Shown one piece after another: positions 6,066 through 36,769 of a stretch of DNA of 64,000 nt. Origin of the DNA: Alphaproteobacteria bacterium. Its GTDB lineage: Bacteria > Pseudomonadota > Alphaproteobacteria > UBA828. Each line of letters opens with the position of its first letter. The first letter of the stretch is position 1. The translations under genes were made by a program, and so were the position numbers. The stretch lies in NCBI GenBank assembly GCA_022826665.1, contig JAJDUK010000005.1, forward strand, positions 55,262-119,261, in the 5' to 3' direction. The notes under the pieces are model-generated. The model ran no database searches. It worked only from the letters and a program-made list of their open reading frames with translations, and was not told where the DNA came from.

Positions 6066-6080
6066 GGCCCTGCGCCCCCG

Positions 6081-7685: not shown

Positions 7686-7832
7686 CGCCTCCCCTCCAGT
7701 CGGCCGCGTCAAGGTACATCCGGTCGCCTGTGATGCAACCGGTCGCCCGCGCCCGAAGGGTCGCGGGTACGGCAGATTGAGGCGCGGCGGTGCCTCCCTC
7801 GGAGCCGCGTGAGACGGGGCCGGGCTGCTGCT

Positions 7833-19374: not shown

Positions 19375-19580
19375 AGGAGGCTGCGCGGAACCGGACCTGC
19401 GCTATCATGCGGCGCCGACAGGGAGAGAACTCCGGGCTAGCGCACATCAAGTCCTTCTGTGGCGTTTGCTGTCCTCTCCTGCCGCAGATAATATCCAACG
19501 TAATCAGTAGGATATCTCCAAACGACGATTCTTGCAGTCACCCGAAAGCTCCGCTAGTCTCATTCATAACGTGGGACAGA

Positions 19581-20753
19581 ATGTGGAACAGACACTTGGC
19601 CAAGCAGCTCACCGCCGCCTTCGTGCGCACCGTCAACACCCCGGGCAAGTACCACGACGAGCATGGGTTGATCCTGCGTGTCGTCCTCTCCCAGCGCAAG
19701 CAATGGATCTCGAAATCCTGGGTCCAGCGCCTCGTCATCCACGGCCGGCGCCGCGACCTCGGTCTCGGGGCCTATCCGCTCGTCGGGTTGGCCGATGCGC
19801 GCGAACGCGCCCTGGACAACCGCCGCATTGCCCGTTCCGGCGGAGACCCGCGCGCACGGCCCGCCGCCGCCGCGCCAACCTTCGAGGAGGCCTTCGAGGC
19901 CGTCCTCTCCGTGAAGGCCCCGGCATGGAAGAGCCCGACTTCGCAGGTTTCATGGCGCCAGACGATGCGCCTCTACGTCTTCCCGCACATCGGAAGCCGG
20001 GGCGTCGACACCCTCACCACCAGCGACATGCTCCTGGTGCTCACGCCGCTGTGGAACGATAAGCCGCCCACCGCCAAGCGGGTGCTGCAACGCATGAGTT
20101 CGGTGTGCCGGTGGGCGATCGCCGAGGGGTACCGCAACGACGACCCGACGGCGAACGTGACGAGCGTCCTGCCCAGGCACAAGGGTGAGGAGAGACACCA
20201 TGAGGCGATGCCGTACGTGCAGGTCGGCGCGTTTCTTGTACGCCTGCGAGACGCGGCGGTTCCGCTACCGCGACGGCTGGCACTGGAGTTTCTCACCCTG
20301 ACCGCGGCGCGCACGAGCGAAGTGCGGCTGATGACCTGGGACGAGGTGGACACGGACGCCCGGACATGGACGGTGCCCGCGGCGCGGATGAAGATGATGC
20401 GGGAGCATCGGGTGCCGCTCGCCGAGCGCGCGGTGGCAATTCTCGATGAAGCGCGCGGGCTTCCCCGCCACGGCTCCCGGTGGGTGTTTCCGGGCACCGG
20501 CGGCGCGGAGTTGAGTCAGATGGCGCTGCTGCGCACCATGCGCAGGCTGGACGAGGAAGCGGCCACGCCGCACGGGATGCGCTCGGCGTTTCGTGATTGG
20601 TGTGGCGAGCAGTCCGACGCACCGCACGCGGTGATCGAGGCCGCCCTTGCGCATGTGGTGCGCAACAAGGCCGAGGCCGCCTACGCGCGGTCGGACCTGT
20701 TCGAGCGGCGCCGAGTGTTGATGGAGCAATGGGCGGCGTACCTCTGTCCATGA
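19581..20753 (+). CDS. int: tyrosine-type site-specific integrase (P4/CP4-57 family)
   Basis: ATG at 19581 inside ORF 19362..20753. Catalytic region TAARTSEVRLMTWDE, HGMRSAFRDW (H-x-x-R) and C-terminal Tyr region. Confidence 0.85.
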   Translation: MWNRHLAKQLTAAFVRTVNTPGKYHDEHGLILRVVLSQRKQWISKSWVQRLVIHGRRRDLGLGAYPLVGLADARERALDNRRIARSGGDPRARPAAAAPTFEEAFEAVLSVKAPAWKSPTSQVSWRQTMRLYVFPHIGSRGVDTLTTSDMLLVLTPLWNDKPPTAKRVLQRMSSVCRWAIAEGYRNDDPTANVTSVLPRHKGEERHHEAMPYVQVGAFLVRLRDAAVPLPRRLALEFLTLTAARTSEVRLMTWDEVDTDARTWTVPAARMKMMREHRVPLAERAVAILDEARGLPRHGSRWVFPGTGGAELSQMALLRTMRRLDEEAATPHGMRSAFRDWCGEQSDAPHAVIEAALAHVVRNKAEAAYARSDLFERRRVLMEQWAAYLCP

Positions 20754-20981
20754 GATTTGCGGTGGTGATCGTCGTGGGTCGAAAATCCCGGTCCGCTGCT
20801 GGCACAGGCACGATGGGCTCGATCGGACCGCGAACGCCCTCGCATCACACCCCGCAACCGGCGCCGCTGGTCGCGCCCCGCTTGCGGGAAGCTCATGGAG
20901 GGACGCTCCAACGGACGAAGTGACCACGCGGATGTCCTCGACGAACTCGGCATCGGTACGGGCGCTCTGCACGCGCCCCGT

Positions 20982-21248
20982 TCACCTGGGTTGAATTCGC
21001 CGGCGTCCCGCTCCGTGACGCGCGGAATCGCCGCACACGCTGTCGCGCGAAGCGATCCACTCGTCGATCCCTCGTGCAAGCCACCCGACCGCGCGCGAGG
21101 TCAGCCGGATGGCGGCCGGAAAATCGCCGGCCTTGATGAGGCGGTAGATCGACGCCTTGGAAAGCCCGGTGCGTTCCATCACCGCGGGCAGGCGCAGTAC
21201 TCGCCCGTCAACGTCCACGGCGCCGTTCTCCCTGTCAGATCCGTTCAT
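20982..21248 (-). CDS. alpA: AlpA family phage/island regulatory protein (excisionase-like HTH)
   Basis: RLPAVMERTGLSKASIYRLIKAGDFPAAIRLTSRAVGWLARGIDEWIA matches the AlpA/MerR-like HTH pattern. Convergent with the integrase. Confidence 0.7.
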   Translation of the reverse strand: MNGSDRENGAVDVDGRVLRLPAVMERTGLSKASIYRLIKAGDFPAAIRLTSRAVGWLARGIDEWIASRDSVCGDSARHGAGRRRIQPR

Positions 21249-21604
21249 GCGATCTCACCGATGTCTCGATCGGGAACAAACGTTGTCGTTCGTCATGGCC
21301 GATACCTCCCGGTTACGAGGTCCCGGCAAGGCGATTCATGGCGGCTAGGGTAAGCTCGTACCGATGTGGCGGCCACAACTTCAGTTAGGGAAAATCCTGC
21401 GCTTGGCACATCGGTGCCAAGCGTGCTCTCACGTGCTCAAATTCGAACACGTGCGACCGAACTTCCCACTGATCCCCGAACTGATCGCCGCCCTCAACCG
21501 CGCCCGCGACAAGGGTACCCACGAGCGTCTGATTCGACGCCTCGCCAGGGCCATGACGCGGCAACTACGTAAACGCATCAAGACCCGGCGGACAATCCGG
21601 CCCT

Positions 21605-21877
21605 CTACGGCTTAGCCGGTTCCACGATGATGCGGCCTCGCCCTCGCCTGATCCGGTAGCCGCCGCGCGGGATCGCCAGAGTACCGTCCTGCACCATCGG
21701 CCAGAGCGTGTCGACGATCATGGCCGCGTTGCCGTCCTGCTTCCCCTTTGCCGTGTCCTGCGACGCCAGCCATTCCGCGAACGCGCGTGTCCCTACCTCG
21801 TCCCCCACCGATTTCCTGAGCGCGTTGAGTTTGCGGAGCTGCCCCTTCGTCAACGTCGACTCATCGAATTCTGTCAT
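21605..21877 (-). CDS. hypothetical protein
   Basis: Start at MTEFDESTLTKGQLRKLNALRK inside ORF 21605..21937. No motif. Confidence 0.3.
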   Translation of the reverse strand: MTEFDESTLTKGQLRKLNALRKSVGDEVGTRAFAEWLASQDTAKGKQDGNAAMIVDTLWPMVQDGTLAIPRGGYRIRRGRGRIIVEPAKP

Positions 21878-22271
21878 CGCGGTTCCTCTTCCGGCTTCTT
21901 CTGCTGAACGAATCGATGCCCCTGTAGCCGATACCAATAGCAGCGCCGCTTCCGCCGGCCCATGTCTCGTTGCCGGTATCGGCCCGGCCTTCCGCGATCC
22001 GCATCTTCAGAACATGAGACGGCCGAAACGTCACGACGCGGCGCGCCGGGATCGGCGCCGGCTCCCCGGTCTTCGGGTTGCGGCCCTCCCGTGCCCGTTT
22101 GTGGCGAACCCTGAAACTGCCGAACCCGGAGATCGTCACCGCCCCCCCCGCCGACAGCCGTTCGGCGCACCCCACGACCGCCATGTCCACGCGCGCCGCC
22201 GCAGCGCGGCGCGGCAGGCCGGTCTCGCGGTGGACGGCGTTCGCCAGATCGGCGCGCGTCACTGTCGCCAT
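21861..22271 (-). CDS. HU/IHF family DNA-binding protein (unusually long C-terminal tail)
   Basis: TRADLANAVHRETGL...GGAVTISGFGSFRVRHKRAREGRNPKTGEPAPIPARRVVTFRPS is the HU/IHF arm signature. About 40 extra C-terminal residues. Confidence 0.65.
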   Translation of the reverse strand: MATVTRADLANAVHRETGLPRRAAAARVDMAVVGCAERLSAGGAVTISGFGSFRVRHKRAREGRNPKTGEPAPIPARRVVTFRPSHVLKMRIAEGRADTGNETWAGGSGAAIGIGYRGIDSFSRRSRKRNRDDRIR

Positions 22272-22447
22272 GGCAGAACAGCACTCCGGATTTCGGTCAG
22301 CGTAGCCCCGCCACAGCTTCGGTCAAATCTCAAGACTGCTCACTTGCGAACCAGGCAACTGCGTGCAGCCCATGTCATTCGCCGGCCGGCGCGCTTCAAG
22401 GCGGAATGCGCCAGTGCGCCGTTGCGGAGCGCAGCTGACGCCTGCGG

Positions 22448-24052
22448 CTAAATCCCGATTCTCTTGCTCAGGCTCAGGTAGTTTCGACCGTCTTTGCGCC
22501 GGTATCGCAAGTCGTCGACATACGTGCGCACCAGATGCAGGCCGAGGCCGTCCACCACCGTTTCTTCCTGTATCGTGTCCGGACCCGGCTGGAACATGAG
22601 GGTATCGGGATCCAGCTCCCGGCCGTCATCCTCGAAGCGGATTGCGAGGCTGCGGGATTCCTCGTTCATCTGAAGGTGGACGTCGATCCGCTGCGTGTCG
22701 GCATCGTCATGGCCATGCTCCACCATGTACATCAGTGTCTCCTCCAAACAGAGTTGTATCTGGAACCGGTCCTGTTGCGGCAGCCCGTGCCGGTCGGCGA
22801 AACCGTCCATCGCCTTCGCGACCCGTTCCAGTTCCCCGCGGCCGTTGCGCACGACCAGGCTCAAGCCTGGGGCCGCTTCCGGGGATCCGTCCCGGCCACT
22901 CGCGGCTGTCGACGGCCCCTCGCGGTCCCCTTCCGTTCGGACACCTGGCCGCTGGGCATCGGACGGCCCGTCGGCTCGCACCAACGCGCTCAACGCCGCG
23001 ACATCGATCGCCGGTGTAGTCGACTTGGGTGGCCAGCTCCGGTCCCCGGCCTTTACGACGAGGCTTCTGACCGCTTTCCTCAAGTCGGCCACAAGAGCCA
23101 ACTGCTGCAGCGTGTCCAATGTCTGCGCATGCTCCGGCAGGCACAGGTGCCGCCAGAGCATCTGATAGGACAGGACGTCATCGCCGGCGAAGTCGAAGAT
23201 ATCCATCGGCGAGGCCGGATCTTCCGGCGAGAGCCCCGCGGCCCGGAGCAGGCAGGCGAGCGCCCCGCGGGTTATCCGGTCTTCCTCGAACCCGTCTTCC
23301 GTTCTGTGCAAGGCGCCCAACACGGCGAAGTAGCCCGAGTTCAGTGGCTGGCTGAAGCTCCACAGCGGTCGCGTGGGGTTGGTCAGGTAGCGCCGCTCGC
23401 CGCCCCGGTGAGGGCGCAGCAGGGCGGCGTTGCGGTGGGGAAAGCGGTCGAACAGAAGCAGGGTCTCGGCGTGCTCTATCGCGGCCTTGACGAACGACCA
23501 GCCGACGACCTGGTTGACCCTTCGCTGGTCGGGCGGCGCAGCGGCGATGAGGTCGGCACTCATGCGCGCCGTTTTCTCGACGCAGAGCTCTTGCAGCTTC
23601 AAGTCCTCCGCGTGACCCAGAGGAAAATACATCCATATGCGCTCGATAACGTTGTAGTGCGCAAACTCCCGATCGGTCTCGCAGGCTTGCCGGGAAATCG
23701 AAGCGGTCACGGGATCGTTCGCGTAGGCCAGAGCCGTGCCGCGATAGACGCTTCGCGGGAATTGGTCGAGGACGATCAACTTCGCCAGAATGCCCTTCGG
23801 AGTGTCCCAGACCGGGTCGCCGAAAAAACGGTCCACCCCCTCTCGGTGCATCTGCTCGCACCATTCGCGCTGAACCCGAAGATCGTTCGGATCCAGGGTG
23901 CTTCTGGTGAACGGTCCGACCCGCCACCGTCGCATCGCCTGCTGCCAGTTCTCGCGGGAAGCATCGGCCGGCGTGCGCAGGCGACCGAGCCAGAAATCCA
24001 GCACCGCCTCCGGAGAGCGCTCCGCAATACGGACATGGTCGTCAGCGCCCAT
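22448..24052 (-). CDS. DUF924 domain fused to RsbW/SpoIIAB-like anti-sigma serine kinase (HATPase_c_2-like) domain
   Basis: Start at MGADDHVRIAERSPEAVLDFWLG (frame arithmetic). N-terminal half has the DUF924 block LIVLDQFPRSVYRGTALAYANDP. C-terminal 140 aa has CLEETLMYMVEHGH, RFEDDGRELD and GLGLHLVRTYVDDL resembling N, G1 and G2 boxes. Confidence 0.55.
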   Translation of the reverse strand: MGADDHVRIAERSPEAVLDFWLGRLRTPADASRENWQQAMRRWRVGPFTRSTLDPNDLRVQREWCEQMHREGVDRFFGDPVWDTPKGILAKLIVLDQFPRSVYRGTALAYANDPVTASISRQACETDREFAHYNVIERIWMYFPLGHAEDLKLQELCVEKTARMSADLIAAAPPDQRRVNQVVGWSFVKAAIEHAETLLLFDRFPHRNAALLRPHRGGERRYLTNPTRPLWSFSQPLNSGYFAVLGALHRTEDGFEEDRITRGALACLLRAAGLSPEDPASPMDIFDFAGDDVLSYQMLWRHLCLPEHAQTLDTLQQLALVADLRKAVRSLVVKAGDRSWPPKSTTPAIDVAALSALVRADGPSDAQRPGVRTEGDREGPSTAASGRDGSPEAAPGLSLVVRNGRGELERVAKAMDGFADRHGLPQQDRFQIQLCLEETLMYMVEHGHDDADTQRIDVHLQMNEESRSLAIRFEDDGRELDPDTLMFQPGPDTIQEETVVDGLGLHLVRTYVDDLRYRRKDGRNYLSLSKRIGI

Positions 24053-24509
24053 GTCTCGATTGTCCCATCTCGCCCGACAGGCCCATCGACCGGCGCAACC
24101 TAGGGGGAAACCCGGTCGCGCCGCTATCCTCCCAAGTGGGAGGTTTCGTTCGAAAGGGGGGTCAAAAAAACTCGGCCCGAACGATGTTCCTGCGAGATTT
24201 TTCGGTGTGGCGGGGCGGCGACGGCGCGCCGGCATGGCCCAGTGCCAGCGCGGCCAGGGTCAGGTTCTCCAGCACATCGGCCGCCGCCATCGCGAGCGGC
24301 AGAAGATAGAGCGGCGCGGCGCGCCGCCACAGTCGGACCAGCAGGATCGTCAGCAGCCGGTCGTAGGCGGTCCGCCTGCTGTTCCCGACCGGCTGCTGCA
24401 AGAGCGAGATGCTGACCCTGCGCTGGTGGGGGTCGATCTCGAATTCGGCGAGCTCCATCTCGCTGCAGCCTAGACCGGCCCTCGCGCGGACCTGCTGCCA
24501 CCGACGGCG

Positions 24510-24866
24510 GTGGCGCTGTTGGAAGCGCTGCCGCGACGGATGGACAGCCCCTGGGTGTTTCCGGGCAACGACCGCTACGGGCGCTACAGCAGCGGCGGAC
24601 TCGACCATGCCTGGCGGACCGTGCGGGCAGCGGCCGGGCTGGAGCACGTGCGGATGCACGACCTCAGACACAGCTTCGCGTCCACGGCGCTCGCCCTCGG
24701 AGAAAGCCTGCCGATGATCGCCAGGCTCCTAGGCCACAGCCAGATCAAGACGACCGCCCGCTACGCCCACCTTGTGCGGCAATCGGTGAAGACCGCCGCC
24801 GACACAGTCGCGGACAGCCTCGCGGAAGACCTGGGCCCGCCCCCGGTCGCTCCGTCCACCGCCTGA
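24510..24866 (+). pseudogene. 5'-truncated tyrosine recombinase (C-terminal catalytic fragment only)
   Basis: 118-aa ORF with MHDLRHSFAS and GHSQIKTTARYAHL (R-H-R-Y catalytic region). No N-terminal core-binding domain upstream in any frame. Confidence 0.6.
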
Positions 24867-25436
24867 CCGGCGGCGCGCATTGACCGGATTGGTCTCGGGC
24901 CGCGGCATCGGCTGCTTGTCCCGGACGGCCCCGCGTCGGACACGGCTCTACATGTACGCAATACCGTCGCGCGTCAGATTGATGACCTTCTCGATGTTTC
25001 CCTCGTCAAGTTTGGAAAGGCGCGATTCCGGCATCCCCAGGGCGGCCGCCAATTCGCTCCTTCGCACGATTGTTGTTCGGCGCGCATGTTGGGCGCCGAT
25101 CGCCGTAGTAAAGCGTTGATTTGCTTCGATTCCGAGGGGTCAAACTTCGACGCCGAACAACAGTCGGCGGCCATCATTGATGCCAAATTTCCTTCGGCCT
25201 CGCCGCCGGCCGGCAAGGTCAAGGAGGCAGGGCGGCCCAATTCTTCGTCACGCCCGGAAGATGCGCCATGTCCGGTCCCAACGCGTTTGCAAGGCTCCAC
25301 GAAGCCTGAATCAGTGGAATCGAAATCACGCTGACCCCCGACGACATGGACCTGCTATTCGGCGCAAGTCCTTTTGTTCTGGGGTATTTCCTTCTATACA
25401 AACCCTCAGGCGATCTAGTCGCGAAGAGGACGTGTC

Positions 25437-25988
25437 ATGAAGCCAGCAGTGGCCGTTGTCGATTGGTATGGGCCATACACTCTTGAAGAGGCACGAACCG
25501 CCACCCCAGACTTTGGGGATGGCATCTACATGGCCACCGGAGCATGCAAGTATCAGCGCGCCGTACGGCCTCAGTATTTGGGAATAACATCAAGTCTTTC
25601 GTCAAGACTAAACGGAGACCATCATAAGTTGTCACTGGTCACTCGAGAGCAGGAACTATGGCTAGGGGAAATCGCCAGTTATAGACGGCCTGGTAGGAAG
25701 ACAAAAGCTACCGATAGAATGCTTGACTTGGCTGAATGGGCGCACATCTACTTTCTACAGCTACCCCTCAACGAGAAAAAAAGAGCACAACCTCCAGATT
25801 ATCCGATTACGGTATACAATCGGTGGTGGCGCAACGATTATGCAACTCCACATCGCCGACGTCCACATCAACGATGGCCCGACCTCATCGATTTTGTTGA
25901 CTGCGATTACCCGGCGAAAGTTGTCTGGTTTGGACGGCGTCAGGTCATAAGGCCCGTGCTTGACTTCAAGAACTCACATGTAGTTTGA
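25437..25988 (+). CDS. hypothetical protein (183 aa), first gene of low-GC island
   Basis: Clean ORF in the low-GC segment. No recognisable motif. Confidence 0.4.
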   Translation: MKPAVAVVDWYGPYTLEEARTATPDFGDGIYMATGACKYQRAVRPQYLGITSSLSSRLNGDHHKLSLVTREQELWLGEIASYRRPGRKTKATDRMLDLAEWAHIYFLQLPLNEKKRAQPPDYPITVYNRWWRNDYATPHRRRPHQRWPDLIDFVDCDYPAKVVWFGRRQVIRPVLDFKNSHVV

Positions 25989-26073
25989 AGTCCGTGCTAG
26001 GCGCACTCCACCGCCTTCAGCCGCTCTACATGCGTAGAGGAGATGATCACACATCCAGTCCAAGAACTGAGCT

Positions 26074-26583
26074 CTATGTATTCAGTACGTTCATGCCACT
26101 GGCTGTTTCCATGACCAAGGCCACATGCTCGAGAAATTTGCGTTGCGCATTGTCGGCTAAGTCCACGTGAGTTGTGTCATCACCTACCGTCATATCCACC
26201 GATCCAGTTGCGATGTCGACCTCCACCGTGCCGCCGATCGTCGGGTGTTCTTGAAGGGCCTTGCGTATTCGAATGTTAGTATCTTGCGATCGCCCGGATT
26301 TGCGAAATTGACTAAACCTGGGCCGCAACTCGACCGTTTCTCCTACATAACACTTCGTACGCCCTTCACCGTAAAGGTGGAACCTGTATAGACCGGTCTC
26401 ACGCGTAGTCTCTGGAAACGCTGGGTCGCCCTTGTCGTCCCATGTGATGCGACCGATGCGTCGCCATCGTACCTCGACCGAAAATCGTATCGACTCAATT
26501 CCCGTTACCACCATCTCAGTCGCTGTTGTTCCGATCATCGCAGTTGCTCCGTGACCTCCCATCTGTTGATGATGGCACACCAT
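26074..26583 (-). CDS. GIY-YIG-like nuclease candidate
   Basis: GLYRFHLYGEGRTKCYVGETVELRPRFSQF resembles GIY-(x10)-YVG followed by the conserved Arg-x3-F helix of GIY-YIG domains. Last gene of the dcm operon; start may be MIGTT at 26538. Confidence 0.4.
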   Translation of the reverse strand: MVCHHQQMGGHGATAMIGTTATEMVVTGIESIRFSVEVRWRRIGRITWDDKGDPAFPETTRETGLYRFHLYGEGRTKCYVGETVELRPRFSQFRKSGRSQDTNIRIRKALQEHPTIGGTVEVDIATGSVDMTVGDDTTHVDLADNAQRKFLEHVALVMETASGMNVLNT

Positions 26584-26616
26584 ACTTACGCGCCCAGCGC
26601 CAGCTCCAATACGTTC

Positions 26617-27669
26617 TCACCGCTCATCACCTTGGTCATCAAGATAGCGATGAATTGCCCGTGCATGATGCTCTGCGAACTTCGGCGGGAACGCATTTCC
26701 AATCATTTGTGCTGCTGGATATCTCCCCCGGGAAAGGTCGAATCTATAGCTTTTAGGGAAACCCTGAAGCAGAGCTGCTTCTCGCAATGTAATAGCTCTA
26801 TCTTTTTCCGGGTGTAAGAATCGCCCTTTCGAAGGATTAATGCATCCTCCAGTTATAGTCGGTGCTTCCTTCCTCCATTCCATACGACCATACACATCCC
26901 AAAATCCCTCTAACCTCTTGTGACATTCCAGCTGGTCATCAACGGGCAAGTCCGCTCTACTGCCCCCATCCTTGGGTATGCGGCAAATCAATTCGTAAAC
27001 CTTATGCGCTCGCCTCACTTTGTAATTGTGCGCTGGATCATTCGATTTCTCTGGCGCTGGCAACTTTCGTATAGCTTCAGACACTGTTCTGCGCCGTGAG
27101 GGGCAAGCAAATGGAGGCAATCCCTTAAGGCCTCCCAACAAAAGCAAGCGACGTCGCCGCTGCGGTACACCGTACCGTGCGGCATCAAAGACATCCACAC
27201 CAGTACGGTAATCTAGACAATGAAGTTCGCTCCTTAGCCGCTCCAATCTCTCGTCACTCATGAGAGCAGGTACGTTCTCCATCATAATGGCTTTCGGCCG
27301 AAATACCCTAACGAACCGAACAAACTGGAACACCAGCTCGTTTTGTGGATCGTTTGCGTCCCTCGCTCCATTCAGAGTGCGCAAGGTCGAATATCCTTGG
27401 CAAGGAGGGCAACCCGCTATGAGATCCATCTCCCCGGCTCTTATGCCAAGTACTTTCATCAGTTTTCGCGGCTTGATTGTCGTAATGTCACACTGGAACA
27501 TTCGGGTGTTTCGGTGGTTCTTACGATAGGTTGACGCAGCCAAGGGATCGTTATCGATCGCTGCCACCACGTCGAAGCCAGCTCGACGAAGACCGAGCGA
27601 CAGCCCGCCACAACCTGCAAATAGATCTACCGCTCGCCGTTCCGCCTTCTCGTATTGGAACGATCGCAT
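26617..27669 (-). CDS. DNA (cytosine-5)-methyltransferase
   Basis: All C5-MTase motifs in order: FAGCGG (I), GCPPCQGYS (IV), MENV (VI), QRRRR (VIII), IGNAFPP (X). Start codon overlaps the upstream gene stop. Confidence 0.9.
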   Translation of the reverse strand: MRSFQYEKAERRAVDLFAGCGGLSLGLRRAGFDVVAAIDNDPLAASTYRKNHRNTRMFQCDITTIKPRKLMKVLGIRAGEMDLIAGCPPCQGYSTLRTLNGARDANDPQNELVFQFVRFVRVFRPKAIMMENVPALMSDERLERLRSELHCLDYRTGVDVFDAARYGVPQRRRRLLLLGGLKGLPPFACPSRRRTVSEAIRKLPAPEKSNDPAHNYKVRRAHKVYELICRIPKDGGSRADLPVDDQLECHKRLEGFWDVYGRMEWRKEAPTITGGCINPSKGRFLHPEKDRAITLREAALLQGFPKSYRFDLSRGRYPAAQMIGNAFPPKFAEHHARAIHRYLDDQGDER

Positions 27670-29438
27670 TAATCGACCCTTCCCACAAAGTCCAAACCCA
27701 CCCGAGACAGTGAAGCCCCCAGTTTGTGCAGCAGATTCAATGCATACTCGTAGCGCAGCTGACCGACAACTCGCACTTCTTGTTCCACAAAGCTAAGATT
27801 ACCGTTCGCTGATCTCGTCGACCCTATGGTCAACATTCTTGTGCTAGCAGGGTCGAGAGAAAATAGTCCCTTATTCTTGGCGTAAACAAAGCTCAAAACG
27901 GGCTGGGCATTTCTTTGACTGGTAAACAGATATGACCTATTCTCGCGCCCGTCCAGGTTCAAGAACACACAGCGTCCTTCATTTATTTCATCTGGCCTTG
28001 GCACCGCGCGTGTATCTCTGTGCAGCTTTACCGCGATGAACGGCAGCCACTCCCCGAAGCGGTCACGACGTTCAGCTCCGCCTTGACCAGGTACCAAGTC
28101 GCAGGCCGGGCTCAAACACACCCAGTAATCATCGCCACTCTGAAAGACATGTCCAGTAGTTAAGTGACGTCCTCCGGGGGGTCTGCTGCATGCGAGTACG
28201 TTGTGCTCGATCAATGCTGTCGTTTTTTCCGATTGTTCAGTGAGATCAACCTGAAAGCGTCTATTGCACACTTGTTTGCTGTTCTCACCGTTTGAGTTTT
28301 CAAATTGCACCAGTTCATCGGCGAAGTCACTGACACTTGGGATCACCTCATCAATAAGCAGCTCTGCGTGCCATTTCACGCTTTCTGAAATGTATTGAAG
28401 GCGCACGTCACTGCTCGCGTCCAAGAGCCTGCTGTACCAATAGGCAAGTGCACGGCGTCGAGCAAGAACGTGCTCCTGAACAGGAACACCTTGTTCGTCT
28501 ACCTCCGCCCGCAACCGCGACAAAAGCAGCCGAGAAGGCGTTGGATTCCATCCCGAAAGCGCTTGACTCAGTCGTTGCAAGAGATCGTCGTGCTCTCCCT
28601 TACGAGCAAACGCTATGAAAATGGAACCACTCTGAATCCAATAAGGGTCGGATAGAGCCCACGCAAACTCTCCAACATAGTTGCTGTGCAGGCTCTCCGC
28701 CAATGCCCTTTCCCGCATGACAAGCGCGTAGATTAGCAACGTGCGACGATCATCCTCATCCAAGCCGACGTCGACGCAAAGTGCGTGAAATTCCGCAAAG
28801 GGCTGCTCCGCCGCCTCCATCGTGCCAAACACTTGACCAGGCTCTCGACGGTATTCGAGATATGCCTCCGTCCCAATGCTAGCCAAGAGCGCGTCTTCGA
28901 ACCCCTCCCGTTCGAGCTCCGCTTCATCCAACAGACGCTGGGCTGCTTCGGCGCCAGCACCGCCGCGGGTTAGGTCCTGAGATGCCGAGAGAAGACCGAT
29001 GCGTACCTGCTGAAACACTTCATCCAGCTCTAGGGATGTGTAAATGATTACCAAGTTGAAGTGCTGATTGCCGGCGACATTGCGCAAAATTTCGATTGCT
29101 CTTGAGCCGTCTTCTCGCCGAGTCCGGTCTAACTCATAGTCCAGGACTAACAAGTCCGATTGATGCAAATGCCGTGCAACCTCCCTCGCGCCCTCCTCAG
29201 GTACGTTCTGTCCGTCGTGAATATCCAGTAGGAGCGGCGTATCTCTATCCCGAAACTGCCTTATCAGCTCTCGTACCCGATCTGGCGATTCGCGCCATCT
29301 CTTTTCAACACCTTGGTCCGATTCTGGAGCAGCCAATATGTCGCTATACGTCGGATAGTCATCATCTACGATGAGAACCGAACGAATGGGATCAACATAG
29401 GCTTTTCCTATGAACGCATCGTAGGACTCACACATCAC
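27669..29438 (-). CDS. receiver-like (CheY-fold candidate) N-terminal domain protein with large uncharacterised C-terminal domain
   Basis: N-terminus IRSVLIVDDDYP...TPLLLDIHDGQ...DLLVLDYEL...NLVIIYTS resembles beta1 acidic pair, phospho-acceptor Asp and beta4/beta5 of REC domains, but is degenerate. C-terminal 430 aa has no recognisable motif. 11-nt overlap with the upstream GHKL gene. Confidence 0.5.
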   Translation of the reverse strand: MMCESYDAFIGKAYVDPIRSVLIVDDDYPTYSDILAAPESDQGVEKRWRESPDRVRELIRQFRDRDTPLLLDIHDGQNVPEEGAREVARHLHQSDLLVLDYELDRTRREDGSRAIEILRNVAGNQHFNLVIIYTSLELDEVFQQVRIGLLSASQDLTRGGAGAEAAQRLLDEAELEREGFEDALLASIGTEAYLEYRREPGQVFGTMEAAEQPFAEFHALCVDVGLDEDDRRTLLIYALVMRERALAESLHSNYVGEFAWALSDPYWIQSGSIFIAFARKGEHDDLLQRLSQALSGWNPTPSRLLLSRLRAEVDEQGVPVQEHVLARRRALAYWYSRLLDASSDVRLQYISESVKWHAELLIDEVIPSVSDFADELVQFENSNGENSKQVCNRRFQVDLTEQSEKTTALIEHNVLACSRPPGGRHLTTGHVFQSGDDYWVCLSPACDLVPGQGGAERRDRFGEWLPFIAVKLHRDTRAVPRPDEINEGRCVFLNLDGRENRSYLFTSQRNAQPVLSFVYAKNKGLFSLDPASTRMLTIGSTRSANGNLSFVEQEVRVVGQLRYEYALNLLHKLGASLSRVGLDFVGRVD

Positions 29439-32391
29439 CGAACTTTGCTCCCCGAAACGTGATCAGAAAGTTTGCTCCGTCCAAAGGCATCCTCGCCTTG
29501 TTGGCCTCGTACTTTATTCGGTGACCTCCTGCCGACAAATTCGCCCGGCATAGATACAGTCCCACTCCGCGTCCCCCTCGTGCCTTTCGTGTGAAAAACA
29601 AGGTGAAGAGGTTGCTCACATCTTCTTCATCCACTCCGGGACCATTGTCAGAAACAACCACATCATCTTCGATAACGCCAAAAATGATCCGGCGCTTTTT
29701 TACCTCAGTGCTGGCCAGCCAATAGATGCTGTTGTTCACTAAGTTGATGAACACAGGATAAAGCCGGGACTGCTGATCAAATACCTGCAAACGAAGAAAC
29801 TCATCGGTGGCCTCCAACGCAATTTGGTTTCGCGCCAAAATCGGCTTAAAGAAGTCCGAGGTATATCGAAATACGTCTTCACCTGTGATCCATTTCTGAA
29901 TCTTTTGGCCCGCTAATCGGAGAGGTGACAGGAACCGCAGCTGGTCGGTAAGCCCTTCGTATGCAAATTCGATATCCTTCGCGGCTTTGCTTTCCCGGAT
30001 ATCTCCCGGCAAACGACGCAACCCATCAGCGAGAATGTCGTCGAAGGCTTGAAGATCATGTGCGACGATTTCCACCGCTATGCCAAGCTGCGCCAAGCTA
30101 TTCAGCCTGTCCAGCTCCGCGCGCAATTCGCCCACTTCGTCCGCGTCGAACGTCGCCAAATGCAGCAGGTCTACACTTTCCCCCAAGCTCTCGAGCGTTG
30201 TTATATATGGCAGCAATATATCCCGGTTCTCTTTGTCAAACCTCTCCTTCAATTTATCCATCGCGGCGGAAGCTTCCAAATACGGCATCGCTTGCGCGCG
30301 CACTCGATCCAGCAGCGGTTCGGCTTCTCGAGTGAAAGCGTCCATCCTCTCCTTGACCAGTTCTCTGACGCGTTCGTACTCTGCGCGCTGTAATCTCTCC
30401 GCTTCCTTACCCCAATTATCCAATCGCCGTTTGAGTTCTCGGCCTTGTCGGGTCAATTGTTCAAGGAGTAAATCCTCTGGCCTTGCCGGGTCGACACGTT
30501 CGATCTGCTCTTCCAACTTTTCTCGCAACGCGGCGACCGCGGTTCGGAAAGCACGATAGTTCCGTCGATACTCGACATATTGGCTCTCCAAGCGCGCGCT
30601 CAACTTCTTCGGCTTCACCGGTAGTGTGAAGTCAGAGAGGCGCCCTACAAACGCATCGAGGTCTTCCTTTGCTGGTCCAATTTGCCTTTCTCTCGTTATA
30701 TCAAGTGATTCCACATAGCTCTCAATCTCGTGAAGGACCGCCGGTAGCTCTTCCGCAAAGTCTTTCAAATTCGCGCGAAACGCGCGCGCCTGCCTCTTGT
30801 GAAGCTTCTCGCGTTCTTTATTTGCCTTTTGACGACGATTGTCCTCCCTGATGTCCGGTAAGAAGTCTCCGCGAAAACTGGACTCGGAACCAAAGTACAA
30901 CCTAGCGGATCTCTGCAAAACATTCGCAACGATTTCCCGAAACGTTTTTGCGGCATGGTTGTCTAGAAGCCCTTCTCTCCCCGCCTTGTCCTTGAGGTTC
31001 GGATTAGTCTCGCGTCCGATTGAGAGACGCCCGAACATTTGTCTGTGATTCCAGAATTCACGACCGGCACTCTTGCTGCGGCGTGACTCGATTTCGAAAA
31101 AATCGTTATCTGTACGGCCATAGGGAAGAACACGAAGACCGTCTCGAAAAACCATGAAGCCAGAGTACTTGTTCGCGAGATCGCGATAGCGGTTGAAGTC
31201 CGCTTCGGTGTGCGTGCTGTTTATGGCGGTGAATTCCATTGACGCGATATAGAGGCCGAATGGGCCCACCCGGGTGTCCGCGCGGGTCGGAATTGTTAGA
31301 TCGCGCGGTGGCGGAATGACGCATTCGTCCGTCAGGTCTTTTCCGAAAGCTCTAATGGAGCCTGTGAATACGCCGTCTTCTCCCACCCGCCCCACAATGC
31401 GATGCTCCATGTCATCAATTTGCCGTCTGTCGAACTGTCTCTCGGAACCGACAACTAAATCCGCTGTTCCATTTGTCCAGGCGCGTACGGCATACGAAAA
31501 CTGCGGATCGCTGTTCGACAATGCCTTATCCGAGGGATCTACGAAAGGGTCCACAAAACTCGAAAGCGTCTCGAAGAAACGATCACGCGTCGCCTGTTGC
31601 GCAACCTCACTGTAGTTCCGCTCGATCTGTGCCCGTAAATCATAGTTGAGGCCGGATATCAGTAGCGCCGTACCCCTATCCGACGCATCTGTCCACACAG
31701 GCCAAGGCTCAATGTGTTCCGGTTGGAAAGGCAGCTCAAGAATGTTGGCGATAATGTCTTCGGAGCGAGCGACCTGTATTCCACTTTCCTTCAGTCCGTC
31801 AATCTCCGACCAAGCCTCGGATATTCGAGCAGATCGCCCGGGTTCTCTCCCGCCCTTAACATTTTCCGACAGAGTCTTGGCCAGTAGCGGCAATTCTACG
31901 AATAAATCAGCTCTGTCTTTGAAATCCACAAGAGGAATTTGAATGTCAGAAAGATTGAGAAAGGGATTCTCAAACAATCGCCAATCGATCAGCGCCGCGA
32001 TGAAAGGCGAATCTTTTCTCTTGGACACCAGCAGCAACAAGGGACCCAAGTTCGCACACGAAAGGCGCCCGATTCCCTTTTGGCCTTGGCGTGGCCGAGG
32101 CTTCAGGCCGTTGCGATCCGCTCGACTTCTCGGATCTGCAGTGGCCTTCGCCTCAGTGCCCACCACCAGCCAGTGTCGCTGGAATTCCTCCCCGCTCATT
32201 CCATGCCCGTCGTCCACGATCGCCGCGACAGGCTCCGGGTCCTTGAAGAGGTGGAGTTCGACCATTCTCGCGTAGGCGTCATACGCATTCTTCCAGAGCT
32301 CGGATATCGCCGTCGGGCAATCCGCGATCTGCTCCCGACCCAGGTGGTCTACGGTCCGTGCCCGAGTCTGAAATGCGATTCCTTGAACCAT
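29428..32391 (-). CDS. dual Bergerat-fold ATPase: N-terminal MORC/MutL-like GHKL domain plus C-terminal histidine-kinase transmitter (HisKA-like H-box + HATPase_c)
   Basis: N-terminal ELWKNAYDA (ExxxNxxDA), DDGHGM, GQKGIGRLS. C-terminal IVAHDLQAFDD (H-box-like), INLVNNSIYW (N box), SDNGPGV (G1), LFTLFF (F), GGRGVGLYLCR (G2). Confidence 0.65.
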   Translation of the reverse strand: MVQGIAFQTRARTVDHLGREQIADCPTAISELWKNAYDAYARMVELHLFKDPEPVAAIVDDGHGMSGEEFQRHWLVVGTEAKATADPRSRADRNGLKPRPRQGQKGIGRLSCANLGPLLLLVSKRKDSPFIAALIDWRLFENPFLNLSDIQIPLVDFKDRADLFVELPLLAKTLSENVKGGREPGRSARISEAWSEIDGLKESGIQVARSEDIIANILELPFQPEHIEPWPVWTDASDRGTALLISGLNYDLRAQIERNYSEVAQQATRDRFFETLSSFVDPFVDPSDKALSNSDPQFSYAVRAWTNGTADLVVGSERQFDRRQIDDMEHRIVGRVGEDGVFTGSIRAFGKDLTDECVIPPPRDLTIPTRADTRVGPFGLYIASMEFTAINSTHTEADFNRYRDLANKYSGFMVFRDGLRVLPYGRTDNDFFEIESRRSKSAGREFWNHRQMFGRLSIGRETNPNLKDKAGREGLLDNHAAKTFREIVANVLQRSARLYFGSESSFRGDFLPDIREDNRRQKANKEREKLHKRQARAFRANLKDFAEELPAVLHEIESYVESLDITRERQIGPAKEDLDAFVGRLSDFTLPVKPKKLSARLESQYVEYRRNYRAFRTAVAALREKLEEQIERVDPARPEDLLLEQLTRQGRELKRRLDNWGKEAERLQRAEYERVRELVKERMDAFTREAEPLLDRVRAQAMPYLEASAAMDKLKERFDKENRDILLPYITTLESLGESVDLLHLATFDADEVGELRAELDRLNSLAQLGIAVEIVAHDLQAFDDILADGLRRLPGDIRESKAAKDIEFAYEGLTDQLRFLSPLRLAGQKIQKWITGEDVFRYTSDFFKPILARNQIALEATDEFLRLQVFDQQSRLYPVFINLVNNSIYWLASTEVKKRRIIFGVIEDDVVVSDNGPGVDEEDVSNLFTLFFTRKARGGRGVGLYLCRANLSAGGHRIKYEANKARMPLDGANFLITFRGAKFGDV

Positions 32392-32738
32392 GCCCTCGTT
32401 CCGCGCCCGTCGCCGACCCGATCAGACGGCCCGCTCAATGCCGAACAGACTCCGCACCAACAGCCGAATGAGGCCGACGCCACCACATATAGCATATACT
32501 ACTAAGGATGCCCCAATATGGAGGCGAAGACCGCTCACGGTTCGACGAGCCTTGGGTTCGGCTCCCTCGACATCTCCACTGAATTCGCCCCATCCCGCCT
32601 ACGCTCCAGCCTTCCAGCCACAATTTCAGCAGCCTTGATGCCGGCCTTTTGCTTCCTAGCCTGATTCTTGCCCGTAGTGATCCTCCCCGCTCAAATCCTG
32701 CACTCCCGTGTCCGGTTAGTGCAATATGGCTTCCGCCG
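32392..32738. promoter_or_regulatory. divergent intergenic region between GHKL operon and vsr (inferred promoters)
   Basis: 347-bp non-coding gap between divergently transcribed genes. No motif resolved. Confidence 0.3.
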
Positions 32739-33203
32739 ATGACCGACACAGTCGATCGCAACACCCGTTCTCGCATGATGGCGAGTGTCTCCAGCAAGGA
32801 CACGGCGCCGGAACTCGCTCTGCGTCGGGCACTTCATGCGCTGGGCCTGAGATACCGACTCCATTGTCGGAATCTCCCCGGCACTCCCGATCTGACCTTT
32901 CCTCGCTTCCGAGCCGTCTGTTTCGTACACGGCTGCTTTTGGCACCGCCACCCCCGCTGTCACCGTACGACAGACCCCACCACACGCCCGGAATTCTGGC
33001 ACGCCAAGTTTCAGGCCAACGTGGAGCGTGACCAACGCGCACGACAGCAGCTTCTGGCCGCTGGATGGCGAGTGGCAATCATTTGGGAATGTGCGCTGCG
33101 CAAGGATCGAGCGGAACGTACATCCCACGTGGTGGCCCAATGGCTACACGGCGACGACCGCGAATTCGAAACGCCTCTCTTCGAAACCCGACACCAACAA
33201 TGA
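32739..33203 (+). CDS. vsr: very short patch repair endonuclease
   Basis: ATG at 32739 by frame arithmetic. TPELALRRALHALGLRYRL, FVHGCFWHRH and WRVAIIWECAL are canonical Vsr blocks. Confidence 0.85.
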   Translation: MTDTVDRNTRSRMMASVSSKDTAPELALRRALHALGLRYRLHCRNLPGTPDLTFPRFRAVCFVHGCFWHRHPRCHRTTDPTTRPEFWHAKFQANVERDQRARQQLLAAGWRVAIIWECALRKDRAERTSHVVAQWLHGDDREFETPLFETRHQQ

Positions 33204-33372
33204 TCTCCCTACCGTATTTTGAACCCGACACCGAGGGCATTTTTCCTCCGATTCTGCTGGCCCTCCACGCATCGCGCTGATCGCCTCGCATGCCCACTTG
33301 TTGCCGACGTCGACACCAACCGGGTGATTCGAATTGCCTTACTGCACTTGGAAGTTGTCCTGATACTTGAGT

Positions 33373-33560
33373 TCATCGCGCGACGAAACCGGACCATTCT
33401 TCCATCAGCACCCGCCGCCGCTCGAACAGATCCGTCCGGCGATAAGCGGCCTCCACCCGATCGGAATTCACGTGAGCCAAGGCGAGCTCGCAGACTTCGC
33501 GGGGTACGTCGGAGCACTCCGCCGCCCAGTCCCGAAACTGGGACTGGAACCCGTGCAGCC
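33373..33560 (-). pseudogene. P4-type integrase C-terminal fragment (about 60 aa)
   Basis: LHGFQSQFRDWAAECSDVPREVCELALAHVNSDRVEAAYRRTDLFERRRVLMEEWSGF is near-collinear with the C-terminus of the intact integrase at 20590-20750. No upstream part is present. Confidence 0.6.
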
Positions 33561-33566
33561 CGCACG

Positions 33567-34181
33567 TTAGCTCTGCCGACCGAGGTGGCCGAAGTCGATT
33601 TCGTACGGCACACCGGTGAGGTTGGTGAGTGTGACGATGACGCGGAACGGGCTGTCGACGTAGGGACGGGTCAGCCAGCCGGCCGGCAGCGGACCGCCCT
33701 GGAAGGCTGCGGCCGCTTTCGTCGCCTGGCCGATCGCCCTGTCGTTGAACAGCGACTTCAGCGGTTGGCCAGCGGCGATGTCGTTGGTCTCGACGAAGCC
33801 GGCGATGTCCAGTTCCTGCACCCAGGTCTTGTAGAACGGATTGCGGTCCCACTCGACCTCAGACGAGGCGGGCGAGATGTGCGGGAAACCGAAGGCAAGC
33901 GCGCGGGCAAGGATGGCGGCGCACACGCCGCCGCCGGATGCGCCGGCCGCGACACGGATCTTCACGTCGTGGTCGGGCACGTCATCGTCGTTCGTCTTCG
34001 CCACGTACCAAGCGTCCAGCGCCTCGATGAGCTTGTCCAGGAATCCCGCCGTGTAGGCGCCGGCCGAGACCGTGCCGCCCAACACCAGAGCGACCTCGAA
34101 GGTGCCGTCGGGCAGGCTCCGCGTGACGTTGCTTTCCAGGACCCGCAGGATCTCTTTGTTTGTCGGCGCTGGCATCGTCAT
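33567..34181 (-). pseudogene. patatin-like phospholipase, 3'-truncated (lacks catalytic Asp block)
   Basis: Start MTMPAPTNK. Has VLGGTVSAGAY (oxyanion loop), GASGGG (GxSxG) and TNLTGVPYEIDF (TDLxTG block). The ORF ends about 10 aa later, before any DGG/DGA motif, right at the integrase fragment. Confidence 0.55.
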
Positions 34182-34370
34182 TCCCCTTTCGCTGCGTACC
34201 ACCAACTCTACATGGGTACAGGGCTTAACATCAGAGATCACTATCGGATGGAGGCGACTGCCTAGCTTCGCACCCTCGGGCTCGTCACGCTTGGCTGCGA
34301 ATGAGCGATCCACTAACATTCCAACTGAACCAGCCCCCGAGAACAGACGATAAGGCTGAGGTAACCAGTT

Positions 34371-35132
34371 ATGTTGAAGTCTGTCGGTAAGCCACGCCTC
34401 AGGAACGCCCTCAAGAAACTGAGGCGAATTCCATTTAATCGCGAGGATCCCTACAATCTGGCAACGGCACCTGTGGAGATGTTGGAGTTCCTCGCAATGA
34501 TTTCTGGGTTAAAACCAGTTGTACTTATTGGACGGGGATTTGATGATCAGAATTGGATTAGGGGGGTTCAAGATCTCGCTGAGGATATGCACTTGCATGT
34601 GATCGAAGGTCCCAAGTGGGAAGCGATTCCGGAATACAGCGGCTTGCCAAATTGGTTCGCTTTGATAGACCAGAAGAAGCTCTCAGAGAATTCGGTTGTG
34701 TATATTAGCAAATCAAAGTCAATCTCTAAATGTGTTAGGAGAATTGTGGATGCTAGAAGTATTACTATCGAGGAAGAGTCAGCTATCCTTGGTTATCCAA
34801 CATGTTGTGTAAAAGACCATTATTACAAAGCTGAAAGGATGAACAGAGGCTTTAACCTTATGCTGGAGCGGCTCTCTAGTGGTGACAAGTCAGAAATGAT
34901 GCGACTTGTTAGGGAGGACGTACCCATGTCGCCTGAGACTGATGAGGAGATAGAATGCATGAGAGAGGCGACACGCACAGTCGTTGCTCCCTACACGAGC
35001 ATTGTGATGTGTCCTTCCTGCGAAGATGATCAGGATAGTCCAGCTCGTATAGTCTCAAAGAATTACAAGATTCTTGCTGATAGTATCGATCCCCGTCTAG
35101 CGTTAGATATAAACCTTCATCAAAAAGTGTAA
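34371..35132 (+). CDS. hypothetical Cys-rich protein, very AT-rich (foreign)
   Basis: 253-aa ORF with GC about 45% in a 65-70% GC genome. Contains GYPTCCVKDHY and CPSCEDD Cys clusters. No family recognised. Confidence 0.45.
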   Translation: MLKSVGKPRLRNALKKLRRIPFNREDPYNLATAPVEMLEFLAMISGLKPVVLIGRGFDDQNWIRGVQDLAEDMHLHVIEGPKWEAIPEYSGLPNWFALIDQKKLSENSVVYISKSKSISKCVRRIVDARSITIEEESAILGYPTCCVKDHYYKAERMNRGFNLMLERLSSGDKSEMMRLVREDVPMSPETDEEIECMREATRTVVAPYTSIVMCPSCEDDQDSPARIVSKNYKILADSIDPRLALDINLHQKV

Positions 35133-35340
35133 GCTGCGCGTAATCGCGACCTACCCTTCTAGATTGTGGGACATAGTACCGGCAATTTCAAACGCCAGCT
35201 TTTCACGAAACAGTTTCAATCGCGTGGATTTCTTCCAGTCTCGCCATGCTTTCCCAGGGCCCGGTCCGCCCCATATACCCCTAGCCCAGCCGGGCCCCCA
35301 CAGTTAGCACGATGCGCCGACCATCACGGACCTCGCCTGC

Positions 35341-35772
35341 TCAGCAGGCTCGTCCAACCGAACCCCGAAGACGCTCGATGTCCTCGCGAAAGGGATCGCG
35401 GCTTTCCGCATCGAAGTCCTCGGGATGCGAATCCATCCAGGCGATCGTGCGCTCGTAATATTCGATCGCCCGTTCGGTTTCGCCGCGCGCTTCGCAGACC
35501 ATCGCCTTACGCATGAGCCAATCGTGCACCTCGGGATAGCGGGTCCTCAGCTGCTCGCACACGGCGTCCGCTTCGTCGAGGCGGCCTTCATCGATCAGGT
35601 TGACGACGCTGTTCGAGAGCCGGTCCAGGTCGGTCTCGGCCCAGTGGTATCCATGTTGCGATGCCGCCGGCGCGGTAGGCACATAGGCGGCGCGGTCGCG
35701 GTCCCAGCAGCAGCGCTTGTACTTCCTGCCGCTGCCACAAGGGCAAGGTTGGTTCCTGCCGATCTTCACCAT
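35341..35772 (-). CDS. SEC-C metal-binding motif protein (YchJ-like)
   Basis: Start [22 protein letters not shown] (SEC-C motif) placed by frame arithmetic inside ORF 35341..36303. Confidence 0.6.
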
Positions 35773-35953
35773 TAACGCCTCGTCGCCGGCATTTCCGGCT
35801 CTCGGACCCCCGATCACATGTAGCCCGCTCGCCGGTCGCCAGCAACATTCCCGACCTTCCGCGGCGCGCCGGCAGGAGGCAGCGGCCGGCCTCTTCCGGG
35901 CGAATTCGGGGACCGGAAAGTGGCCCTCGCGCCACCGCCGGGGAGGCCGACCC

Positions 35954-36769
35954 ATGTCCAGCCGCATCGCCGACATTCTCGTGCCGCCGCGATGCCGGGA
36001 GATGATCCGCGCCGGCGCGCTCATCGCCATCAACACCAGCGGTGGCAAGGATTCACAGGCGATGACCATCCTGCTGTCGCGGATCGTTCCCCGCGACCAG
36101 ATCGTGGCGGTCCACGCCCCGCTCGGCGAGGTCGAGTGGCCGGGTACGATCGAGCATATCGAGGCAACGCTACCCGCCGGCGTGCCGCTCGTCATGGCGC
36201 CGGTTTCGTCCGGCAAGTCGCTGCTCGACCACGTCGAGGAGCGTGGCATGTTTCCAGGAGCCCGCCAAAGATGGTGTACGGCGGCCCTTAAACGGGGACC
36301 CATCGAGCGCGAACTGCGCCGCTATCTGAAGGCTCATCCCCGCTTCGGCGGGCGCCTCGTCAACGCCATGGGCATGCGCGCGGAGGAAAGCCCGGCACGT
36401 GCCAGGAAGGCGCCGTGGAGGCGCAACGACCGGATGAGCGTCGCGGGCCGCGAGGTCTTCGACTGGCTGCCGGTCTTCGACCTCTCCACGGACGACGTCT
36501 TCCGCGTCATCCACGACGCCGGCCAGTCGCCGCACTGGGCCTACGCCGCCGGCATGTCGCGGCTGAGTTGCAGCTTCTGCATCCTGGCGTCCCGCGCCGA
36601 CCTTCGCCGCGCGGCCGAGCTCCGCCCGGCGCTCTACCGCACCTATGTGGAGCTTGAGCGGCGCATCGATCACACGCTCTCGCCGTCGGGCATCCCCCTG
36701 CCGGAACTGACCGGCGTCTCCCCGGCAACCGCCCGCCACGACGACCCGACCGGCCTGAACAGCATCTGA
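35954..36769 (+). CDS. phosphoadenosine phosphosulfate reductase family protein (PP-loop ATPase)
   Basis: ATG at 35954. Has INTSGGKDS (SGGxDS PP-loop). Confidence 0.7.

Follow-up and report, generated by a model that had tools for sequence, protein, structure and literature searches.

What does a response-regulator-like (RR-like) protein do when its gene lies between those of a histidine-kinase-like (HK-like) protein and a DNA methylase? The question arises on the reverse strand of a 64,000-nucleotide (nt) window, the whole stretch that was analysed (contig JAJDUK010000005.1 of an alphaproteobacterium, positions 55,262 to 119,261). A first-pass annotation, made from the sequence alone, had described there a receiver-like protein with a large C-terminal domain that could be an output or effector module. 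The reading that we favor, with a probability of roughly 45%, is that the soluble HK-like protein has the RR-like protein as its cognate partner and that a His-Asp phosphorelay switches a toxin-fold effector of a methylation-linked module. The three genes in question are the following, in window coordinates:

26617-27669, reverse strand: C5 cytosine DNA methyltransferase, Dcm-type (PF00145, E = 1.4e-60; TIGR00675)
27669-29435, reverse strand, stop codon included: RR-like gene, Response_reg_2 family, 588 amino acids (aa) from ATG (open reading frame (ORF) list, identical protein P0001, PF19192)
29428-32391, reverse strand: HK-like gene, 987 aa, directly upstream of the RR-like gene (PF13589, PF19191, PF02518)

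The open frame of the RR-like gene extends over 27669-29438 and has 589 codons when counted from a GTG. Because the codon after this GTG is an ATG, at 29435, and because P0001, a database protein of identical sequence, is 588 residues long, the true start is probably the ATG one codon further in. Residues are numbered here from the ATG, and adding 1 gives the numbering from the GTG. The ATG lies within ATGTGTGA, where the RR-like gene and the stop-codon end of the 987-aa gene upstream have 8 nt in common (11 nt from the GTG); in TAATG, a single base belongs both to its TAA stop and to the methylase ATG. Thus, the overlaps with both neighbors that had been reported earlier are real. The protein was 100% identical to one metagenomic and NCBI protein, and clustering at 90% gave at least 992 homologues, almost all 580-640 aa long, from Proteobacteria, Bacteroidota and other phyla. 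With this many homologues, and with 487 clusters at 50% identity for the C-terminal domain alone, the ORF is a real gene and no chance reading frame.

The N-terminal half of the protein divides into three parts:

29028-29387, reverse strand: receiver core beta1-beta4, residues 17-136 (D24-D25 at 29361-29366, acceptor D99 at 29139-29141, T133 at 29037-29039)
28641-29027, reverse strand: variable all-helical insertion between alpha4 and beta5, residues 137-265 (AlphaFold 2 secondary structure and conservation)
28545-28640, reverse strand: receiver beta5-alpha5, residues 266-297 (strand 272-278, then invariant K279 at 28599-28601)

The only Pfam family that matched was PF19192 (Response_reg_2), over residues 18-150 with E = 4.5e-22 and 79.5 bits against a cut-off of 27, and the same family matched all 65 of 65 diverse homologues. 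The canonical receiver family PF00072 gave no match to the RR-like protein at E <= 1 and was found in only one of the 65 members, with E = 0.034. The full-length AlphaFold model (predicted local distance difference test, pLDDT, 79; predicted template modelling score, pTM, 0.76) placed strands at residues 19-23, 94-99, 127-133 and 272-278 with helices between them, which is the (beta-alpha)5 flavodoxin-like fold of the CheY-like receiver superfamily. A profile-profile comparison by hhalign with a profile of 14 canonical REC sequences gave P values of 1e-4 to 3e-4, after an earlier comparison with a single CheY sequence had been uninformative. It aligned SDLLVLDYELD with the beta3 acceptor motif, so that D99 corresponds to CheY D57, and with the insertion spliced out it paired T133 with CheY T87 and K279 with CheY K109. 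D24, D25, D94, D99 and K279 were each present in 145 of 145 diverse sequences, and T133 was Thr in 144 of them and Ser in one. The N-terminus is therefore a genuine but divergent receiver with the complete residue set D24/D25, D99, T133 and K279, and its phospho-acceptor is the invariant D99 (D100 from the GTG) of DLLVLDYELD, at the end of beta3.

The first-pass annotation was right that the N-terminus is receiver-like, as the PF19192 match and an hhalign P of about 1e-4 bear out, and it went astray in the details. It had taken LLLDIHDG for the phospho-acceptor site, and this motif is the beta2 region, in a low-confidence loop of the model (residues 61-79, pLDDT below 50). It had also seen no clear conserved Lys, because K279, directly after strand 272-278, is hidden by the insertion. 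With K279 placed beyond the insertion, the receiver extends over about residues 17-297, and the unassigned remainder shrinks from the 430 aa first given to about 290 aa. The insertion itself is about 125 residues long and all-helical, and its mean pairwise identity of 0.20 was the lowest of any region. It interrupts the receiver at the alpha4-beta5-alpha5 (output) face and displaces K279; in ordinary response regulators this is the face that transmits the signal. D71, in LLLDIHDG, was kept in 140 of the 145 sequences (E in the other 5) and D74 in 136 (N in the other 9), and D71 is an extra feature of the RR-like family, outside the canonical receiver set. The surrounding stretch, residues 66-99 (29139-29240), is rich in His and Asp, with DIHDG followed by HLHQSD; it is an unusual stretch that is kept in the family, and H73, H89 and H91 are conserved among the closer relatives.

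The HK-like partner carries two ATPase modules on either side of a candidate histidine phosphorylation site, with HATPase_c_3 at residues 27-130, HEF_HK at 768-825 and HATPase_c at 874-965 (Pfam):

32002-32313, reverse strand: MutL/MORC-type GHKL ATPase
30058-30060, reverse strand: H778, in the HEF_HK DHp
29497-29772, reverse strand: HATPase_c, the C-terminal CA domain

Among 73 HK-like sequences, the H-box H778 was present in every one and was followed by E or D. Also invariant were the N-box (N883/N887) and the G1 (D915xG917xG919) and G2 (G940xG942xG944L) boxes of the kinase module, the N-terminal GHKL motifs (E31, N35, D38; D60xG62xG64; G103xxG106xG108) and the motif KDKAGREG of the middle region. 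Residues 520-760 are poorly conserved and have a charged, heptad-like sequence, as would suit a coiled coil that connects the DHp to the N-terminal ATPase. Judged by these motifs, the HK-like protein could plausibly phosphorylate the RR-like receiver. Its N-terminus resembles the BbrUII/HgiDII restriction enzymes (NF050001, E = 1.6e-16) and PADLOC REase_II, and no nuclease motif was found in it with Pfam, PADLOC, NCBIfam or conservation.

The part of the RR-like protein beyond the receiver comprises a linker and a second domain:

28251-28544, reverse strand: helical linker or bundle, residues 298-395 (AlphaFold 2 helices 300-394; poorly conserved except R309 and W333)
27672-28250, reverse strand: C-terminal beta-rich domain, residues 396-588, with a predicted MazF/Kid/CcdB-like barrel core
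28083-28118, reverse strand: signature motif CLSPACDLVPGQ
27735-27761, reverse strand: signature motif QLRYEYALN
27702-27704, reverse strand: R578

At the level of sequence this region offered nothing to hold on to, as the first-pass annotation had said. No Pfam, NCBIfam, PADLOC or PDB-sequence match places residues 300-588, and the protein has no transmembrane segment, which had likewise been seen by eye. The only PHROGs match of the RR-like protein was phrog_7659, a family of unknown function. None of the output domains of the OmpR, NarL, LytTR and NtrC classes (helix-turn-helix, winged-helix, LytTR) was recognized, nor was a restriction endonuclease of the PD-(D/E)xK, HNH, GIY-YIG or PLD type.

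The predicted structure was more informative. A separate model of residues 396-588, built from an alignment of 65 sequences, reached a pLDDT of 87.7 and a pTM of 0.83. Its elements follow one another as a hairpin, a long loop, a strand, a short helix, four strands and a C-terminal helix, an order that we take to agree with that of MazF. The full-length model independently gave the same fold matches, and a Foldseek search of the full-length model against the PDB returned nothing below E = 0.2. We conclude with moderate confidence that the modelled fold of the C-domain is closest to the MazF/Kid/CcdB toxin barrel.

The C-domain also has conserved residues of its own. C445, D446, G523, Y564 and R578 were invariant in all 145 sequences; N412, H429, P449, R561 and E563 were about 99% conserved, H424 90% and C440 94%. 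The conserved aromatic and basic residues are W438, Y562, Y564, R561 and R578. The motifs C-x-S-x-A-C-D-L-V-P-x-Q and R-x-x-Y and R578 were kept even in a 22%-identical relative from E. coli. The best 150 of the 487 C-domain clusters all had the same architecture, with the domain at the C-terminus, or were fragments. Conservation thus indicates that the C-domain is under functional constraint, with a polar cluster consisting of N412, H424/H429, C440, C445-D446, R561, E563, Y564 and R578. Three familiar sites were tried on these residues and rejected. A PD-(D/E)xK nuclease built from D446 and AVK (468-470) fails because K470 varies among the 145 sequences, in agreement with the first-pass annotation, which had seen no such signature by eye. 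A strict Cys2His2 zinc site of H424, H429, C440 and C445 fails because of substitutions: H424 is Q in 12 of the 145 sequences, C440 is V in 8, and the E. coli relative has T in place of H429. An HEPN-like R423x5H429 motif was discarded, as R423 is unconserved.

How firmly the three genes belong together was determined from 80 genome loci whose RR-like proteins are 25-44% identical. A full-length HK-like gene was immediately upstream in 79 of the 80, and the exception was a truncated contig. A C5 methylase was directly beside the HK/RR pair in 75, and three of the five exceptions were again truncated contigs; the methylase of the window also matches PADLOC MTase_II with E = 2.3e-83. Vsr was found in 43 of the loci and is present in the window as well:

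32649-33203, forward strand: Vsr very-short-patch repair endonuclease, divergent from the operon (PF03852, TIGR00632)

The Vsr ORF opens at a TTG and runs for 30 codons until it reaches the Vsr domain (from ORF residue 31), and the true start is likely the ATG at 32739, where the family profile also begins. Apart from the methylase and Vsr, no further effector or nuclease gene was conserved in the 80 loci. At three loci (L031, L032 and L038, at about 5000-8000) the HK-like matches fell in two or three consecutive frames with an intact RR-like gene in all three, which suggests frameshifts or sequencing errors.

The methylase stands in one of two places, either upstream of the HK-like gene, where it is 30-40% identical to the enzyme of the window, or downstream of the RR-like gene, where it is 60-66% identical, and the identities of the HK-like and RR-like proteins are equal in both arrangements. 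A more distant pair lies in E. coli at the border of prophage CP-1639 (AJ304858.2, 2738-6332), where the pair is annotated 'remnant integrative element'; its RR-like protein is 22.5% identical. There, the HK-like protein lacks the N-terminal GHKL and middle region and aligns solely to residues 375-984, no methylase is near, and the RR-like protein keeps its receiver residues and most of the invariant C-domain residues. A blastn search with a Pantoea homologue against complete E. coli genomes gave no match. In the window, the three genes form a block of 52-53% G+C inside DNA of 66-72%, and the G+C content is 52-56% from about 26 to 36 kb compared with 66-72% outside and 68-70% for the genome. 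The cassette was acquired horizontally, and HK-like, RR-like and Dcm make up a conserved, translationally coupled and horizontally mobile module, often accompanied by Vsr.

The family and its genomic context were already known. PF19192 and PF19191 were defined by Bellieny-Rabelo, Pretorius and Moleleki in 2021 (PMC8011034), where RR-like is OG_4. In that study the HK-like and RR-like genes were linked in 91.6% of cases over 644 regions, restriction-modification (R-M) domains were in excess nearby, with C5 methylases and Vsr foremost, and the HK-like protein was related to the paraMORC ATPases. Of the RR-like protein it covers the receiver-like part alone, and a text search of it found no statement on the RR-like C-terminal region or an output domain. 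With family and context in the literature and in Pfam, the present locus is one more member of a known family. The present analysis adds a predicted toxin fold for the C-domain, places the helical insertion and shows that the methylase lineage is independent.

From these results we infer that the C-domain may be the effector of a defense or addiction module. In such a module a dimeric HK-like protein would monitor DNA through its N-terminal GHKL/MORC-like clamp, and the cue would probably be invading DNA or DNA without the 5-methylcytosine mark of the linked methylase. The signal would pass down the coiled coil, the HK-like protein would autophosphorylate H778, and the phosphoryl group would be transferred to D99 of the RR-like protein. 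The most likely consequence would be that phosphorylation relieves autoinhibition of the toxin-fold C-domain or drives its dimerization; MazF and CcdB act as dimers. The target of the C-domain might then be a nucleic acid, or else a protein (gyrase, for example), and its action would halt either the invader or the cell under infection. The methylase would mark self DNA and the MORC-like ATPase would sense DNA.

The earlier proposal of an output or effector module thus remains the best fit to the evidence, though unproven, because the receiver is complete, the H-box and ATP boxes of the partner are intact, no other effector is conserved and the predicted fold is of a toxin type. Several results weigh against a phosphorelay-switched toxin. 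No model in NCBIfam or in the defense-system collection PADLOC matched the RR-like protein, and the literature searched held no experimental characterization of the family and no named defense system containing it. A PemK_toxin or CcdB match in Pfam was found in 0 of 65 members, family profiles hit PDB sequences by chance only (azurin, E = 2; an oxidoreductase, E = 1), and hhalign of the C-domain with four MazF/Kid sequences was not significant (P = 0.07); the related loci yielded no MazF homologues with which to enlarge this set. Where MazF has its catalytic Arg, in the RPxVV strand, both inspection by eye and the same non-significant alignment put LPF in the C-domain, and Arg is not evidently conserved there, so any activity would need a different chemistry. 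No small antitoxin-like gene was conserved beside the pair in the 80 loci. A few intact HK/RR pairs had no Dcm at all, and the pairwise identity of Dcm hardly followed that of any HK/RR sub-region (r 0.09-0.24, partial r -0.10 to 0.21), with no region standing out.

The weak correlation indicates that the methylase is exchanged independently of the HK/RR pair, as read from these sequence comparisons. Together with the pairs that lack a methylase, this argues against a nuclease with a matched recognition sequence of its own, and it would fit either a specificity that comes from the methylase or a sequence-nonspecific trigger. The same two observations bear on an alternative, namely that RR-like is the catalytic subunit of a restriction enzyme under the control of ATP and the phosphorelay. 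As a new DNA nuclease or nickase, the C-domain would then use C445-D446, H429, E563 and Y564 to cut DNA without the Dcm mark, and the cassette would be an unusual but true R-M system. The strict linkage of the C5 methylase and the frequent Vsr are as in type II R-M operons, the HK-like N-terminus has its resemblance to BbrUII/HgiDII and REase_II, the polar residues of the C-domain are invariant, and the module conserves no other candidate nuclease. However, there is no PD-(D/E)xK, HNH, GIY-YIG or PLD signature, and the methylase is swapped between similar HK/RR pairs without any HK/RR region that co-varies, a pattern hardly expected of a matched recognition sequence, unless specificity lies with the methylase. 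A nuclease attacking unmethylated DNA would also be lethal in the intact pairs that have no methylase, and we consider this explanation unlikely.

A non-enzymatic barrel seems unlikely to us too. Here, the C-domain would be an SH3-like module for nucleic-acid binding, for reading the mark or for docking to a protein, and RR-like would be an adaptor that, when phosphorylated, recruits or releases the MORC-like ATPase so that foreign DNA is compacted or silenced and not cut. The catalytic residues of MazF are not evidently conserved, W438, Y562, Y564, R561 and R578 would suit a binding module, and eukaryotic MORCs work by DNA compaction (PMC8011034). In contrast, an invariant Cys-Asp pair accompanied by His, Asn and Glu points to an active site or ligand site more than to a surface for binding. 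An ordinary two-component system that controls the transcription or activity of the methylase and Vsr beside it, or of further genes, in the manner of a C protein, appears quite improbable: a role in signaling cascades that control R-M systems was raised in PMC8011034, and the Pectobacterium HK/RR genes are induced under stress in planta (PMC8011034), but the conserved module holds no restriction gene to regulate, and an apparatus of about 1,600 aa with two ATPase modules, carried on mobile islands, would be excessive for one methylase. Returning to the phosphorelay-switched effector, its boldest form would be a methylation-linked immune system without a restriction endonuclease, in which a MORC-like ATPase fused to a histidine kinase senses foreign or unmarked DNA, the relay arms a MazF/CcdB-fold toxin with a new Cys-Asp active site, and the self/non-self discrimination of R-M is joined to an execution of the abortive-infection or toxin type. 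This form we regard as doubtful.

The cassette is held by a mosaic genomic island at 19362-36300, where it is flanked by integrase fragments and lies downstream of a complete integrase with an AlpA-type gene. The other features of this region are:

16858-16934: tRNA-Arg(TCT), about 2.4 kb from the integrase
19362-20753, forward strand: complete tyrosine integrase
20982-21248, reverse strand: AlpA-type gene
21861-22271, reverse strand: HU-like gene
22448-24235, reverse strand: 595-aa ORF with DUF924 (E = 6e-33) and a C-terminal HATPase_c_2 anti-sigma-factor-type kinase (E = 1e-17)
24510-24866, forward strand: integrase fragment
25437-25988, forward strand: 183-aa ORF just downstream of the methylase
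26074-26583, reverse strand: 169-aa ORF just downstream of the methylase, unique to this lineage
33373-33852, reverse strand: integrase fragment, with a C-terminus closely like that of the complete integrase
33567-34319, reverse strand: 250-aa ORF overlapping the integrase remnant, sub-threshold patatin-like phospholipase (E = 4e-5, 24.4 bits against a cut-off of 27.7)
34371-35132, forward strand: 253-aa low-G+C ORF of no family

The 595-aa ORF is a second GHKL-type protein of the island and is unrelated to the HK-like gene. The 183-aa and 169-aa ORFs had no match in Pfam, NCBIfam, PADLOC or PHROG and no counterpart in the 80 loci; by eye, the 183-aa ORF contains GIY and, 15 aa further on, YLG, which is faintly GIY-YIG-like without profile support. 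The 250-aa and 253-aa ORFs are not conserved beside the module elsewhere.

The HK-like/RR-like/Dcm module is widespread, with 644 published regions and at least 992 protein clusters here, and it is found on mobile islands. Compared to the label 'hypothetical response regulator', the analysis provides the true phospho-acceptor and a receiver that is complete yet interrupted at its output face, and it gives the orphan C-domain a predicted fold of the toxin type with a short list of invariant residues. If the relay does gate a toxin, this would be the first two-component phosphorelay to act as the trigger of a methylation-linked defense system; if it gates none, the finding is another copy of a catalogued family.

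A comparison with known systems shows where the locus is ordinary and where it is not. Compared with the published pair (PMC8011034), the gene order, the soluble kinase with HATPase_c_3, HEF_HK and HATPase_c, the C5 methylase and Vsr nearby and the conserved Asp/Asp/Thr/Lys residues of the receiver are all the same, and nothing is different in kind. With the CheY-like receivers of PF00072 the RR-like protein shares the (beta-alpha)5 order, the acidic pair after beta1, the Asp after beta3, the Thr of beta4 and the Lys of beta5, but it goes undetected by their hidden Markov model, carries a helical insertion of about 125 residues between alpha4 and beta5, and has a long alpha1-beta2 region with the additional acidic residues D71, D74 and D94. 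Its output domain resembles no catalogued response-regulator output. Compared to MazF, Kid (PemK), CcdB and ToxN-CptN, the C-domain has no sequence similarity; it is about twice the size of the MazF/Kid/CcdB toxins and has in addition a helix at its N-terminus and a long beta-hairpin, and its invariant residues are different (ACDLVPxQ, RYEY). The MazF/Kid/CcdB toxins are neutralized by an antitoxin gene, whereas the C-domain is covalently fused to a receiver. Further parallels are the paraMORC and GHKL-ATPase restriction and defense systems (Iyer et al. 2008, PMC2292703), VcSduA of Shedu type I-D, in which a GHKL ATPase controls the effector in phage defense (PMC12137116), and BbrUII/HgiDII. 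These have in common with the present module an N-terminal MutL/MORC-type GHKL ATPase, Dcm and Vsr, a location on mobile islands and an ATPase proposed as the gatekeeper of an effector. The effector of those systems can be recognized as a nuclease, fused or adjacent (DUF4263, restriction endonuclease fold, helicases), whereas the present module has no known nuclease, and its ATPase is separated from the putative effector by an HK module and by a receiver on a protein of its own.

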